Shown here piece after piece: positions 14,563 through 20,012 of a stretch of 64,000 nucleotides of DNA. A program made the translations under genes and the position numbers. The notes beneath the pieces were generated by a model, which saw nothing but the letters and a program-made list of their open reading frames with translations, did not search any database and was not told the origin of the DNA. The DNA lies in the NCBI GenBank assembly GCA_965238275.1, contig OZ250186.1:992001-1056000 (forward strand). The letters are read 5' to 3'. Positions within the stretch are counted from its first letter, which is position 1; the number at the start of each line of letters is the position of its first letter. The stretch is from Nitrosopumilus sp. GTDB taxonomy: Archaea; Thermoproteota; Nitrososphaeria; Nitrososphaerales; Nitrosopumilaceae.

Positions 14563-16656
14563 TCAGCGCCTGGGTCTCATGTCTTTATAATTGGGAGCCG
14601 GAGCGGCATTCTGATACTGCCTGATTCTCTCTGCAATAAGCCTGTACAGCGATCTGAACTGATCCTTGGTTTTGTCCGAGAGGAAGCCGGTCTCGCCCAA
14701 TGTGATCTTTTCACAGACGTACCTTGTGATGTCTTCATTGTCAAACACTCCCCAGCCGTCGTCTGCATGCTCCTCCCAGACAGTTCTCAGCTTGTCCAGT
14801 ATCCCCCTTCCATCCTTTGGCATGACATCCTGGGCGGTAATATTTGCAAACCCCTCGTTTCTCAGTTTTATCTCATATGTCTGGTTTACAGGATACATGT
14901 AATCCTCAGGTACGATATAGTCCTCTATCGACTCCAACTTCTTTCCGTTCATCTCAAAGATGATCGTCTGTACCGGCGAAAAGCCGTTGGAATTCAGATG
15001 TGTCGAGATCTGCTTGGATTCGTCCGTGTTGTCCAGCAGGATAAACGTCTTGTATCCGTGGTTTCTGTGAAATATTGCCAGAGGAAGGACTGCGTTCTTG
15101 TTGTATGCGGCTACAACGTTGAGCGGATTCATTGATATGTTTGGATCCTGAAGGAACTTGTCAAATGCGTTGAGATACATCGCATCGGACATCGTCTCCA
15201 CTATGATTACAGGTCTTGAGTTTGTTCCAATCTCCCGGTCCACTATGGATTCAACTTGGCCCCTTGAGAGTCCATAGAGGATAGGCGTCAGCGTCTTGTC
15301 ATCTGCATTCCAATAGTCATAAAAGATTCTGCTGAGGTGCTTTCTCTTGTCCAGCTCCACTACAAGCAGGTTTCCCGGCGTGTAGTCAAATATCATGAAC
15401 GGTGAGTGGGTTGCATACAGAACCTGGTTGGATCCGGCCAGGTTCTTGAGCAGGTTCGAGATTCCCATCTGCTGTGTGGGGTGGAGGTTTCTTGCAGGCT
15501 CGTCTAGCAGCAACAACGCCTCCTTCAGCTCCGCCCTCTGGGTTTCGGCTGCAAAGTTCACAATAAATGAAAACGTCCACTTGAAGCCCTCGGCCCTCCT
15601 GTTGAGCAGTCCTGTGTTTGTAATTGTTCCATCCCTGTGTACATCTGAAATTACCACACTCATGATGTTTCCCGGATTGTATCTTAGATCCACATGGATC
15701 GGTTCTCCCTTCCATGCAGGATTCAACTTTCTAGTCAGTCTGTTGCTTGCCGTGTTGAGAAGCTTTATGCATTTTGACGGGTTGTTCTTTACTGCCTCAA
15801 GCTCATCTATGTTGAGCTCTGCAAGATAAAAGAGGTTTCTTACAGTTTCAGCCCTGTCAAACTCCTCTATAACCTCGATGGAATTGGTTCTCTGATTGTT
15901 CTCTTCCCTGATAAACTCGTTAAGATTGATGCTGCCGTAGATCTTTTTGTAGTCTGAAAAGTAGACAAATCTTGGATGCATCTCTGATTCGATAAAATTC
16001 TGCATGGCAGTCTTTTCGCTGTTGCCGCTGAGCAGACTGGCAAACTGGTTTTCAGGGCTGTTGCAGATCTCCTCCCACTTCTCAATAACCTTTGGTTCCT
16101 GAACTGCTATCACCTGAAAATGGTTGCTAAACTCTGCCAGCTCCCCTTCAAACGTCTCCTGGTTCTTTGGAATAGACCCGTCAAAGAATTTTGTATCTAT
16201 CTGTATCCTCAGATGGTTTGGAATCGTATCCAGAAACCCGATAACCTGTTTTGTAAAGTTCTCCCACGAGTTAATATTGCCGCTATCCCCGTCGTCCAAC
16301 TCGATCTCATCAAACTTGTATTGAACCTTCGATCTTCTGTTTGTCCTGAACAGTCTGATCTTTTTTATCTCCGGAATTCCCGGAAACTTCTCCCTGATTA
16401 TGGCCGTTTCACGCAGATTCAGCTCAAACTCACCTTCGACTAGCTTGACCTCGTCTTTGAGCTCTTCACTCATTTCATCGCAAAGATCCAGCTCTGATAC
16501 CTGCTCGTCTTTGTTTAGCAATGTCAATGCCTGAAGGATGGTCGTCTTGCCACTCTCGTTTCTGCCAACAAAGGCTGCCAAATCCTCAACTGTTATCTCC
16601 CCAGAGTCATGAATGCAACGATATGCCCTGACTCTGAATTTTCTGAGTCGCATCAA
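14563..16656 (-). CDS. ABC/SMC-type ATPase with C-terminal TOPRIM-like domain (OLD-family-like ATP-dependent nuclease)
   Basis: Walker A GRNESGKT, LLLLDEP, ATHSP; IVETMSD and LLDNTD are TOPRIM-like. Confidence 0.8.
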   Translation of the reverse strand: MMRLRKFRVRAYRCIHDSGEITVEDLAAFVGRNESGKTTILQALTLLNKDEQVSELDLCDEMSEELKDEVKLVEGEFELNLRETAIIREKFPGIPEIKKIRLFRTNRRSKVQYKFDEIELDDGDSGNINSWENFTKQVIGFLDTIPNHLRIQIDTKFFDGSIPKNQETFEGELAEFSNHFQVIAVQEPKVIEKWEEICNSPENQFASLLSGNSEKTAMQNFIESEMHPRFVYFSDYKKIYGSINLNEFIREENNQRTNSIEVIEEFDRAETVRNLFYLAELNIDELEAVKNNPSKCIKLLNTASNRLTRKLNPAWKGEPIHVDLRYNPGNIMSVVISDVHRDGTITNTGLLNRRAEGFKWTFSFIVNFAAETQRAELKEALLLLDEPARNLHPTQQMGISNLLKNLAGSNQVLYATHSPFMIFDYTPGNLLVVELDKRKHLSRIFYDYWNADDKTLTPILYGLSRGQVESIVDREIGTNSRPVIIVETMSDAMYLNAFDKFLQDPNISMNPLNVVAAYNKNAVLPLAIFHRNHGYKTFILLDNTDESKQISTHLNSNGFSPVQTIIFEMNGKKLESIEDYIVPEDYMYPVNQTYEIKLRNEGFANITAQDVMPKDGRGILDKLRTVWEEHADDGWGVFDNEDITRYVCEKITLGETGFLSDKTKDQFRSLYRLIAERIRQYQNAAPAPNYKDMRPRR

Positions 16657-16854
16657 GCCATATTTAGTTGGCTTCGATTTAACTTATTCGACGTTTGATT
16701 TGGGAATTATATGGATTGGCAGACCCCACATATTGACAACGCTGTTCCACGCCGGCGAATGTTTGGTTGTCCCGTAGTGCAACCACGTGTTTGGGCAGCT
16801 GCATGCTTGTGCAACCCCGCCTAGATTTGGCTGGGACGAGTATGTACGCCTGAC

Positions 16855-16914
16855 TAAGTGGTTAGGTTTACGCCTAATTCCACAATGCTGCAGACATCGA
16901 ACCTAAACAGTTAC
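16855..16914. mobile_element. About 60-bp miniature inverted-repeat element, copy 2
   Basis: Identical to 14372-14431; flanked by CGCCTGAC (16847-16854) and CGCCCGAC (16915-16922). Confidence 0.78.
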
Positions 16915-16927
16915 CGCCCGACTCCGC

Positions 16928-18446
16928 TATAGTGAAAAGCGAAAGTCCGTGCAATTTTGAGATCCTTTTTAAGAAAATAAATCCCAACTACAGGTATGAT
17001 TGTCAGCAGAATCATCAAGATAACACAATCTCGGGAACTGTCGCGCAAGATCGTGAAATGCTCCCGGGAAACAGACATCATTTACGACATGACGATCATG
17101 ATGAAACTTGCACACCCGGGAACCACACAGTTTGATGTCAACAACCTGATAACAGGATGGCGCAGGGAATTCGGCCTGACCAACAGCGTCCGCATGCATG
17201 AGGCCGCCTCAAAACAGGCTTTCCAGGCGGCAGTCAAATTCCGCAAGGCAAACCGGCTCAAGCACAACAAGCGCATCTGGCGCAAGAAACAGATCAAGCT
17301 GGGGGAAAAGAAGACGTACAGGCACAACAGGTGGACCGAGCCGTCTGGCCTGATGAGGCGCGGCAGGAAAACAACCAGGCTGCGCTCGCTGAATTCACGC
17401 GGAAAGCCAAAACTGCGGGACGATGGCACCGTATTTCTGCCCGGACTCGGGGAAGTAAGGCCGCGCGTAAAGATCCCGGAAGGCAGGTTCGTGTCATTCC
17501 AGATGATTGATGTTACGAAAAAAGTCACGCGCAGGACGAAAGATTCTGACTGCGAATTCAGGCCGTGCCTGCAAATCGAGGTTCCGGATCCCGAACCCGT
17601 GACAGACGGCGACGGCGACAGCTGCAAGGCCGGATTGGATCTTGGAGTCAGGCACCTTGCGGCAGTCGCAGACGAGCATGGGAATGAAAAATTGTACAAT
17701 GTCCCGGGAGGCTGCAAGAGGCATGACGGCGACAGGATTGATCAGCTGAAATCACTTAGATCAAGATGCCAGACAGGCTCCAGAAGATGGAAAGAGATCG
17801 GCCGCAAGATAGCGCATGAATTGAAAAATATATCAAACAGGCAAAAACACAACGAGATCGACATTGCCAGGCGGATAACAAAAGGGCTGTCTACATTGTT
17901 CTTGGAAGACATGGATTTGACCAAGATGAGGCGATCCAACGGAAATTCCTCAAAGACGGGGCTGAACCGCGAGATGGCATACTCCAGGATGGGGGAGTTT
18001 CGATGTCAGCTTGAATGGCAGATGAAAAAGAAAGGCGGCGTTGCAAAACGCGTGAAATACAGGTACACGAGCCAGAAATGCGCTGCCTGCCAAATAGTGG
18101 ACAGGAAGTCCAGAAACGGCGAATCCTTTGTCTGCGTGTCCTGCGGGTGGTACCACCATGCCGACAAGAACGCGGCAAAAAACATCTTGGATAATGACTG
18201 TCTCCATACGGAGGAGACTGGCGGCCAAGCCCACGGGAATCGTGGAGGCACCATTGCAGGTGTCGAGGTCGTCACAAGGCGCGAGGATCACGGATCGGAT
18301 GGTTCTGGAATGAACGATTCGACAAGCCGGCTTGGACCCGGCAACAAGGATGATGATGATGTTGGAAGATCTGACAGAGCGCCGGAAAGAGCATCAGGAC
18401 ATGCTACAGAGAGATCTGTTTGCACGAACTTTCGCTCGCCGCTATA
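16928..18446 (+). mobile_element. TIR-bounded non-autonomous element carrying only tnpB, with TA-flanked IS630/Tc1-like ends
   Basis: Left end TATAGTGAAAAGCGAAAGTCCGTGCAA (16928-16954) vs reverse complement of right end (18420-18446) TATAGCGGCGAGCGAAAGTTCGTGCAA: 22/27 identical. Confidence 0.78.
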
Positions 18447-18447
18447 A
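16996..18447 (+). CDS. tnpB: TnpB-family RNA-guided endonuclease
   Basis: RuvC-I GLDLGVRH, RuvC-II LFLEDMDL, YTSQKCAAC...FVCVSCG zinc finger, RuvC-III HADKNAAKNI; all three acidic residues present. Confidence 0.93.
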   Translation: MIVSRIIKITQSRELSRKIVKCSRETDIIYDMTIMMKLAHPGTTQFDVNNLITGWRREFGLTNSVRMHEAASKQAFQAAVKFRKANRLKHNKRIWRKKQIKLGEKKTYRHNRWTEPSGLMRRGRKTTRLRSLNSRGKPKLRDDGTVFLPGLGEVRPRVKIPEGRFVSFQMIDVTKKVTRRTKDSDCEFRPCLQIEVPDPEPVTDGDGDSCKAGLDLGVRHLAAVADEHGNEKLYNVPGGCKRHDGDRIDQLKSLRSRCQTGSRRWKEIGRKIAHELKNISNRQKHNEIDIARRITKGLSTLFLEDMDLTKMRRSNGNSSKTGLNREMAYSRMGEFRCQLEWQMKKKGGVAKRVKYRYTSQKCAACQIVDRKSRNGESFVCVSCGWYHHADKNAAKNILDNDCLHTEETGGQAHGNRGGTIAGVEVVTRREDHGSDGSGMNDSTSRLGPGNKDDDDVGRSDRAPERASGHATERSVCTNFRSPL

Positions 18448-18466
18448 ATAGATATAAGGGAATTGG
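18200..18466 (+). ncRNA. Putative omega/reRNA scaffold plus flank-derived guide for TnpB
   Basis: Lies between RuvC-III and the element's right end, where TnpB guides are normally encoded; short hairpins visible (CCACG/CGTGG, GGCACC/GGTGTC, GCCGG/CCGGC, AGCAT/ATGCT); boundaries inferred. Confidence 0.45.
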
Positions 18467-18569
18467 AGATCCTAGTTAGTTGTATAACTCCAATCTCGTG
18501 CGTAAATTATCACCAATAAAACACGATCTAGACACGATTATGCAACAAACTAGGAGATCCTAAAACAAA

Positions 18570-19013
18570 ATGGCATCAAAGACCGTTCTTATATTTATAC
18601 TGCCTGTGTTGTTCTCGATAGTGTTTGGATCCGCAGTAATGGCCGATATTCTTCAAAAGCCTGATCGTACCCTGAATATGTGGCCTGTGTCATCTGAGAC
18701 CACATCTCATGAAGCCCTTGAGATCATCGGACTATCCGAGCACTACTCTGTATCCGAGTTAATAACAGCACAATTCGTAGTATCCGATCCCTCTTTTGAC
18801 TGCGCCGATCTATATGTTACAATTTATTCAGAAAACGTGTCTGTCAGCCAAAACGGATTCTTTAAACAATGTTTCGGGAATGAAGGCATCATTCCGGTAG
18901 ATGATACGTTCTCTGAGACCATTGACACTCCGGGATCCTATGAATTGGTGGCACAGCTTGGATCAGAAAACTTGGGATTCATTCTGGCTAGCGAAATATT
19001 TACTGTTAAATAG
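18570..19013 (+). CDS. Hypothetical exported/membrane-anchored protein
   Basis: N-terminal hydrophobic segment, beta-rich body with two Cys. Confidence 0.7.
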   Translation: MASKTVLIFILPVLFSIVFGSAVMADILQKPDRTLNMWPVSSETTSHEALEIIGLSEHYSVSELITAQFVVSDPSFDCADLYVTIYSENVSVSQNGFFKQCFGNEGIIPVDDTFSETIDTPGSYELVAQLGSENLGFILASEIFTVK

Positions 19014-19058: not shown

Positions 19059-20012
19059 ATGGACGTAACAGGTGATTCGCAAACCATAGAAGAGATCCGG
19101 GCAGAGATTGATAAACTAAAAAGGAAGGCGATGATTCTGGATTCGTCGTCCACAAGCACTATCAAGGGATCCTATTCAAAGAAACCGGCATCAAAGACTG
19201 CAGCCAAGAAGCCTGCAGCCAAGAAAACCGCATCAAAGACTGCAGCCAAGAAAACCGCATCAAAGACTGCAGCCAAGAAGCCGGCAGCCAAGAAAACCGC
19301 ATCAAAGACTGCAGCCAAGAAGCCGGCAGCCAAGAAAACCGCATCAAAGACTGCAGCCAAGAAAACCGCATCAAAGACTGCAGCCAAGAAGCCGGCAGCC
19401 AAGAAAACCGCATCAAAGACTGCAGCCAAGAAGCCGGCAGCCAAGAAAACCGCATCAAAGACTGCAGCCAAGAAGCCGGCAGCCAAGAAAACCGCATCAA
19501 AGACTGCAGCCAAGAAAACCGCATCAAAGACTGCAGCCAAGAAGCCGGCAGCCAAGAAAACCAAACCCAAAGAATCTGAAAAAACGCCCGAAGAGGAGAT
19601 GGAGGCAAGCCTCTCTAATGAGGAGATTGAAAATTTTCGGATTGAAAAGGTCGACATGGACAAACTCACAAACAAGGTATGCGTCATTCTGGCAGAACGC
19701 GAATCAAACGGAATGCTTCAAAACGAACTGTGGAAGAAACTCAAACTCTCAAACCGTGACGGCTCCCGTCTGTCATTGAAGCTTGAGAGAATGGGAACCA
19801 TTACCAGAGAGAAACTTCTTCAGAAGAACCGCTGGACTTACAAACTAATCCTAAAAAAGACCCCAATCAGTACCAAATCTATCGAGAATGCCCCCTGCCT
19901 GGTGTGTCCTGTTGAACAAAGATGTACCATAGACGGTGAAATCAGCCCTAGAAGCTGTCAGCTTATTGAGGACTGGGTAATCAATTCGATGAAGAAGCCG
20001 AAGTCCCGATGA
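19059..20012 (+). CDS. TFE-beta/RPC34-like protein (winged HTH plus Cys cluster) with histone-H1-like Lys/Ala repeat region
   Basis: GMLQNELWKKLKLSNRDGSRLSLKLE wHTH; APCLVCPVEQRC...SPRSC..IEDW Fe-S-type motif. Confidence 0.82.
   Translation: MDVTGDSQTIEEIRAEIDKLKRKAMILDSSSTSTIKGSYSKKPASKTAAKKPAAKKTASKTAAKKTASKTAAKKPAAKKTASKTAAKKPAAKKTASKTAAKKTASKTAAKKPAAKKTASKTAAKKPAAKKTASKTAAKKPAAKKTASKTAAKKTASKTAAKKPAAKKTKPKESEKTPEEEMEASLSNEEIENFRIEKVDMDKLTNKVCVILAERESNGMLQNELWKKLKLSNRDGSRLSLKLERMGTITREKLLQKNRWTYKLILKKTPISTKSIENAPCLVCPVEQRCTIDGEISPRSCQLIEDWVINSMKKPKSR
19183..19562 (+). repeat. Coding tandem array of 42-bp (ASKTAAKKPAAKKT) and 27-bp (ASKTAAKKT) units
   Basis: Near-identical gcatcaaagactgcagccaagaa... 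units repeated about 10 times. Confidence 0.95.

Follow-up and report, generated by a model that had tools for sequence, protein, structure and literature searches.

A tnpB element with IS630-type inverted repeats and a candidate omegaRNA in a Nitrosopumilus genome

TnpB nucleases are usually tied to the IS200/IS605 and IS607 groups of insertion sequences, with their scarless excision. Elements of the IS200/IS605 group possess neither terminal inverted repeats nor target duplications and depend on the Y1 transposase TnpA (PMC13565253, section 5.1). Association with DDE transposases has also been described. Altae-Tran et al. (2023, PNAS; PMC10691335) report a branch of TnpBs linked to IS630-family DDE transposases (‘DDE-6’), whose elements have symmetrical ends and a separate HTH protein, together with solo TnpBs that lie within DDE-type ends and are presumed to be mobilised in trans. 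In eukaryotes, Fanzor1 is found in Tc1/mariner and other DDE transposons (Bao and Jurka 2013; Jiang et al. 2023, PMC10530073; reviewed in PMC13565253). According to a 2026 review (PMC13565253, section 6.2), Fanzors read the 5′ target duplication within their TAM, and the 3′ copy forms part of the RNA scaffold. The same section contends that TnpB should be of little benefit to DDE cut-and-paste transposons. In the preprint of Meers et al., IS630 serves solely as a negative control.

The element described here lies in a 64,000-nucleotide stretch (the window) of the genome of a Nitrosopumilus archaeon, and the literature search found no account of TnpB in Nitrosopumilus, the single TnpB/Thaumarchaeota paper being unrelated. 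It is a clear archaeal example of the TnpB/IS630 pairing and not a new system. IS630-linked and solo TnpBs were already reported in 2023 (PMC10691335), so that its kind is known, and the proposal of an undescribed system in an earlier note on this DNA, made from the sequence alone, is not supported. What is added is the archaeal host clade, a candidate partner transposase, an omegaRNA supported by covariation and a C-TA flank, found at 32 of 32 left junctions, that predicts the TAM.

The element, its TnpB and its copies

The element spans positions 16928–18446 of the window (1,519 bp) and runs from TATAG to CTATA, as read from the sequence and by a repeat finder. Its two arms are complementary at 22 of 27 positions (81%) and form the longest inverted pair of the region (Table 1). 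Between them, the sole long open reading frame (ORF) with a family match is tnpB, and neither the ORF list nor Pfam reveals a transposase gene inside the element, which is classed as non-autonomous because it lacks a DDE transposase gene of its own. The tnpB stop codon, TAA at 18445–18447, takes T18445 and A18446 from the element and A18447 from the flank. The earlier note had recognised the paired repeats with their TATAG and CTATA ends, a tnpB with all three RuvC acidic residues and a stop codon formed at the junction of right end and flank; all of these hold, with the correction that the element ends at 18446, one base before the 18447 given there.

Table 1. Features of the element and its junctions, in window coordinates
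Feature	Position	Strand	Basis and remarks
Candidate TAM: left-flank CGC, then left copy of TA; family pattern (T)NC+TA	16925-16929	+	Flank counts and empty sites; TAM role inferred
Left terminal inverted repeat, 27 bp, TA at start	16928-16954	+	Pair I1; kept at left ends of copies; 19-22/27 against family-D-like IS630 ends
tnpB ORF, 483 aa	16996-18447	+	ORF list, Pfam, residue alignment
Conserved structured RNA, omegaRNA scaffold candidate	18200-18446	+	RNAalifold covariation; overlaps codons of the TnpB C-terminal tail; ends in right repeat
Right terminal inverted repeat, 27 bp, TA at end	18420-18446	+	Pair I1; 23/27 against 3′ end of IS630 copy D1; RNA helix 10 pairs into repeat
Predicted omegaRNA guide segment, right flank, about 16-20 nt	18447-18466	+	Inferred by analogy with TnpB systems

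The neighbourhood holds further repeats and two long ORFs. A repeat of about 60–70 bp with internal inverted arms (I7; 16855–16924), of which at least seven further copies exist in the genome, stands 3 bp 5′ of the left end. On the other side, 18465–18560 is occupied by an insertion of about 88 bp with inverted ends (I2) and a 10-bp direct repeat (GGAGATCCTA). The orthologous spacer of the closest relative, G017, is without this insertion, which is probably a MITE; copies of about 80 bp lie at genome positions 1288730–1288809 and 1992783–1992864. Beyond it, a 317-aa ORF (19059–20012) encodes a long series of tandem units rich in lysine and alanine (AAKKPAAKKTASKT...), with a globular part at the C-terminal end, and upstream of the element a 697-aa ORF on the minus strand (14563–16656), with a P-loop motif near its N terminus, shows 72–88% DNA identity across the genus.

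Pfam assigns the 483-aa protein to OrfB_IS605 (E 1.6e-11) and Cas12f1-like_TNB (E 8.7e-16). In HMMER alignments, which at residue level cover the structures 9yyg and 9j09 only, D215, E304 and D390 fall on the RuvC acidic positions of 9yyg, a 408-aa RNA-guided nuclease labelled as AI-designed, and a CxxC...CxxC zinc ribbon is aligned to it as well. Sequence searches of the PDB also give weak matches to ISDra2 TnpB (8bf8/8h1j; query residues 170–399, E 2.5e-7) and to a mimivirus TnpB-like protein (E 2e-9). Within the clade alignment D215 and D390 are invariant and E304 is retained in 90% or more of the sequences. The protein is predicted to be an active RNA-guided nuclease. Its clade is narrow: a search of 5.8 billion proteins yielded 23 clusters at 44% identity or more, with the next matches at about 30%, and among 201 genomes of the order the clade is present in three at E 1e-20 or better. 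Scans of viral and metagenome contigs recovered relatives at 24–53% identity over their best segments, falling to about 30% or less in longer matches; these were considered too remote to bear on how TnpB was captured.

The host genome, a single contig of 2.217 Mb that is 99.9% complete, contains 34 DNA matches to the element, and blastn returns 33 segments; some 20 copies are full-length and some 10 are fragments, all with TATAG...CTATA boundaries. Among the ends listed, 24 of 24 right ends finish in CTATA (one as CTATG) and 19 of 22 left ends begin with TATAG (one as TGTAG); of the three exceptions, two have undergone rearrangement at the 5′ end and the third is broken by another insertion. 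The boundaries are not a product of chance, since identical ends recur across copies.

Several loci have a more complex structure. A second, single-copy TnpB family (P0016; 44% amino acid identity) occupies genome positions 501191–502710, where the right repeat is degenerate and the only one recognisable, and two main-family copies (genome 828605 and 2148252), truncated at the left, are joined there to the 5′ region of this family. At 950963–952545, the sequence after a divergent full copy consists of 51 bp similar to the 3′ tail of the element itself and, beyond these, a second right repeat, an arrangement that suggests a nested or tandem remnant, although its left flank is unlike the interior of the element. 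At 642577–645960 the left repeat of a TnpB copy is split by an insertion of about 1.8 kb with a 503-aa ORF (second copy at 498225–499733) and an apparent 8-bp duplication.

Related elements are found in few other genomes. Two further subfamilies of the clade occur in G017 (55–58% and 46–49% amino acid identity), and a Nitrosopumilus MAG (G217, locus L081) harbours one copy at 72% identity, the sole further locus in a wider scan of genome contigs. All of these elements carry inverted repeats of the same type as IS630 family D of the host (see below), and G017 also possesses family-D IS630 copies, whose ends are related. The association of this TnpB with IS630 ends is, on these comparisons, older than the host genome. 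Among 81 genomes of the genus the clade is found in three, those of the host, G017 and G259; the ends at the G259 locus (protein identity 38%) are weak (17/22) and of a different kind, and this locus was left out.

A candidate omegaRNA and the state of the family

For 15 elements drawn from three genomes, the 3′-terminal 260 nt were aligned and their common structure was predicted with RNAalifold, giving 52 pairs in 10 helices, 20 of which pairs show compensatory double changes. Paired cells make up 97.7% of the model, a figure that is flattered because the structure was derived from the same alignment used to score it, compared with 88.2% when partners are shuffled, and none of 500 shuffles reaches the value of the model. 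When the partners are slid by one to three columns, 34–47% of cells remain paired and the pairs with double changes fall from 20 to 0–4; the compensatory counts are large. The single-sequence fold has a z-score of −3.03. The structured part begins at about 18200 and reaches the end of the right repeat, within which a GCTC pairs with an internal GAGC to form helix 10. No relevant Rfam family was found in window 16700–18700, where the one match was at chance level (E 0.9).

This region is also coding. In the host genome no stop codon interrupts the tnpB frame across the RNA region before the element ends, whilst in G017 the frame closes about 30 nt earlier, and most indels seen when the 3′ tails are aligned have lengths divisible by three. 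Metatranscriptome contigs from four runs of two studies, 88–99% alike, span the element and cross 18446 into four flanks, although they show neither ends nor strand and may include DNA, and so speak neither for nor against transcription. The last 250 nt or so are put forward as a candidate omegaRNA, which ends, as expected, in the right repeat.

It may be asked whether the family is still mobile or whether it is a fossil, its copies immobile and its TnpB decaying or exapted. Subfamilies are 78–99% identical and the main subfamily 97–98.9%, yet no pair is identical, the closest reaching 98.9%; the absence of identical copies means that activity may not be current and that very recent movement is unsupported. 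Several copies are interrupted by other insertions, and of the 17 copies with both ends five have a broken ORF. The other 12, however, keep an ORF of 475 aa or more, and the catalytic triad is intact, the 3′-tail indels preserve the frame in most cases, the RNA pairing is kept by compensatory changes and the candidate transposase D1 is potentially intact. A fossil family is therefore judged unlikely, at perhaps a quarter of the weight.

Insertion sites, IS630-type ends and the oriented flank

The orthologous intergenic region is empty in two congeners. In G002 it reads ...GC-TA-AATAGATATAAGGG (ttttgc-TA-aatagatataaggg) and in G017, the closest relative (88% in the neighbouring gene), ...TG-TA-AATAGATATAAGGG (ctttg-TA-aatagatataaggg), each with a single TA and no element. 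Two other copies have paralogous flanks in the same genome, and all four of these empty paralogues contain exactly two nucleotides at the position of the element. They read TG, TG, AA and AA, not TA, which counts against the reading, although at 75–94% identity to the flanks it is explicable by divergence after duplication. The sites fit insertion at TA with duplication of the TA, which cannot formally be told apart from the case of an element that has a TA of its own at the end and inserts 3′ of ...C-TA. In the orthologous region of G017 (L055 339–1541), an insertion of 2.6 kb with a 400-aa ORF lies between a conserved ATPase-like gene and the empty TA site, and has the look of a further mobile element in this intergenic position.

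The host genome contains 34 DDE_3 (IS630) matches, which fall into four families (A–D) by DNA similarity and differ in their ends. The ends of family D follow a consensus, TATA[C/G]TGACG..CAAAAGTT.., that is common to the TnpB element. Against family-D-like IS630 ends of the host and its congeners the ends of the TnpB element are identical at 19–23 of 27 positions, compared with 8–16 of 27 for families A–C of the host; a relaxed scan for family-D repeats returned mostly noise, and of its hits only a few clear family-D-like ends were used. The IS630 ends of the host that come closest differ from those of the element at 4 of 27 positions. One member of the family, D1 (genome 1873253–1874348), sits in a (GTA)n tract with TA on each side and has an uninterrupted ORF of 354 aa, of which the 337-aa part scanned contains HTH and DDE_3 domains; its transposase is potentially intact. 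The GAAAAG-type left end of the TnpB element resembles the 5′ ends, and its GGCGAG-type right end the 3′ ends, of IS630 elements in G204 and G234 (22 compared with 19–20 of 27), a weak hint that left/right polarity may be kept between the two kinds of element. A stretch of about 490 bp at genome 123051–123540, with family-D-type IS630 ends and no long ORF, is a MITE-like relative.

From these ends, the IS630 family D transposase is the most likely agent to move the TnpB element in trans, cross-mobilisation being assumed. IS630 transposases at least 58% identical to D1 are found, among the same 81 genomes of the genus, only in the host and G017. This co-occurrence with the TnpB clade is suggestive only, as it concerns two genomes that are both rich in insertion sequences.

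The two flanks of the element are unlike each other. At the 32 distinct left junctions (22 from the host genome, nine from G017 and one from the MAG), the base 5′ of the left TA (−1) is invariably C, and −3 is T in 21 (18 of 22 in the host). At the 35 right junctions, the base after the right TA (+1) is G in 13, C in nine, A in eight and T in five. The −1 C comes from the target: the empty site of G002 and each of the four paralogous ones already have it, with G at the orthologous site of G017. The asymmetry tracks the orientation of tnpB in three diverged subfamilies, including the G017 elements, whose repeats are near-identical. It is best explained, on the available sequences, as a TAM of TnpB, (T)NC+TA, that would overlap the target duplication; a symmetric, TA-inserting transposase alone cannot produce a C on the tnpB-proximal side only. 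The occupied right junction reads ...CTATA-flank, unlike the order of TAM and guide target in the empty allele.

A target preference of the IS630-type transposase would offer another origin for the left-flank C, with TnpB as a passenger that has some other role or none. IS630 itself prefers CTAG, and C precedes the TA at 10 of 19 family-D-like IS630 ends, on both sides of these elements (five of five in G017), so that part of the C signal may reflect the transposase. A mild CTAG-type preference is indeed likely, and the slight excess of G on the right of the TnpB elements (13/35) fits it. A symmetric preference, however, predicts that left C should be as frequent as right G, whereas the counts are 32/32 and 13/35, and it does not account for an asymmetry that follows tnpB even where the repeats are nearly the same. 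Transposase preference as the whole explanation is consequently considered improbable, at about one chance in five, and the TAM reading is favoured.

The elements to which TnpB is most often assigned fare far worse as hosts. Searches with six-frame HMMs found no match to Y1_Tnp (PF01797) or to the Resolvase serine recombinase (PF00239) in the host, G017 and the MAG, of which the latter two also carry the TnpB clade, whilst control genomes do match. The locus could be read as a solo tnpB of the IS200/IS605 ‘IS1341 type’, moved by a Y1 TnpA since lost, in which case the flank motif would be the TnpA target and the repeats incidental. A conserved 5′ flank motif with a similar motif at the element end (CTATA) does resemble IS605 logic, and Pfam names the protein OrfB_IS605. 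Against this, folds of the left-end DNA revealed no subterminal hairpin that is significant relative to shuffles (z −0.6 and −1.4), the repeats match IS630 ends at 19–23 of 27 positions, TA is present in the empty sites and Y1 TnpA is absent from the three genomes; the assignment was rejected as highly improbable. An IS607-type element, with TA as the crossover dinucleotide of a serine recombinase, would share a dinucleotide between target and element end as observed, but the recombinase is absent from the same genomes and the 27-bp repeats are common to DDE_3 elements, so that this assignment, barely credible, was rejected too.

The mechanism put forward in the earlier note holds in these comparisons: neither a Y1 nor a serine transposase accompanies the element, other copies share the boundaries set by the inverted repeats, the predicted empty allele with a single TA exists (G002, with G017 as a second case), an IS630-type transposase element with closely similar ends is encoded in the genome (D1 and family D) and the ends are not IS605-like hairpins.

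Relation to described systems and to a proposed restorative homing

Taken together, the locus is probably a non-autonomous IS630/Tc1-mariner-type transposon that carries tnpB and an omegaRNA, is mobilised in trans and uses TnpB for homing or retention, a reading held with good though incomplete confidence. The earlier note had arrived at much the same IS630-like, trans-mobilised mechanism, which is supported, whilst its novelty is not (PMC10691335). Two 27-bp inverted repeats bracket tnpB and the candidate omegaRNA scaffold in the place of the transposase gene. A family D transposase encoded elsewhere in the genome would act on the common repeat consensus in trans and insert the element at TA, duplicating it. 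The omegaRNA would be read from the 3′ part of tnpB through the right repeat into the flank, so that the guide of each copy would match that copy's right flank. The empty allele, with the order (T)NC-TA-guide target, would then be recognised by TnpB through C+TA as TAM and cut, and recombination of the cut allele with an occupied copy would restore the element (restorative homing or retention).

The closest described systems are the DDE-6 elements. As PMC10691335 presents them, they share with the present element a TnpB inside symmetrical IS630-type ends, a TnpB 3′ end no more than 250 bp from the end of the transposon and the existence of solo forms. They differ in that DDE-6 elements encode an IS630 transposase and an HTH protein, whereas the copies examined here encode neither, and in that the host is a Nitrosopumilus archaeon. 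The overlap of TAM and target duplication proposed here was not found in its passages on DDE-6. With Fanzor1 the element has in common a TnpB-family nuclease as the cargo of TA-duplicating inverted-repeat transposons, be they autonomous or non-autonomous, and the proposed arrangement of TAM and duplication is the one stated for Fanzors in the portion of PMC13565253 cited above. Unlike Fanzor1, the protein is prokaryotic, 483 aa long and devoid of introns or eukaryotic features.

Two further groups resemble the element in part. Solo tnpB elements of the IS1341 group (IS200/IS605) are likewise multicopy, contain only tnpB and have an RNA scaffold at their 3′ end, but here inverted repeats and TA are present and TnpA is absent. 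MITE-like derivatives of IS630/Tc1-mariner transposons also combine the ends of an autonomous family with TA insertion and the lack of a transposase; in contrast to these, the element has 1.45 kb of functional-looking cargo (tnpB and RNA) rather than an internally deleted transposase gene.

A more specific scenario can be put forward only tentatively, and is rated less likely than not: that an IS630-type element captured TnpB independently in archaea, that nuclease and DDE transposase have since co-evolved, that the TAM, (T)NC+TA, contains the TA target of the transposase and that the right repeat has two roles, binding the transposase and forming the 3′ part of the omegaRNA scaffold. If true, the element would parallel, in a prokaryote, the Fanzor1/Tc1-mariner arrangement, and would offer a natural setting in which to ask whether cut-and-paste DDE transposons profit from restorative homing.

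As a compact archaeal protein with a predicted short TAM, this TnpB is also a candidate for genome-editing screens. The family combines numerous copies whose ends are defined with empty sites, a candidate transposase, covariation in its candidate omegaRNA and an oriented flank motif, and is a prokaryotic case that helps to test the argument, as made in section 6.2 of PMC13565253, that DDE cut-and-paste transposons have little to gain from TnpB. It yields testable predictions as to how an RNA-guided nuclease may serve a transposon that duplicates TA, as with the Fanzor1 elements of eukaryotes.
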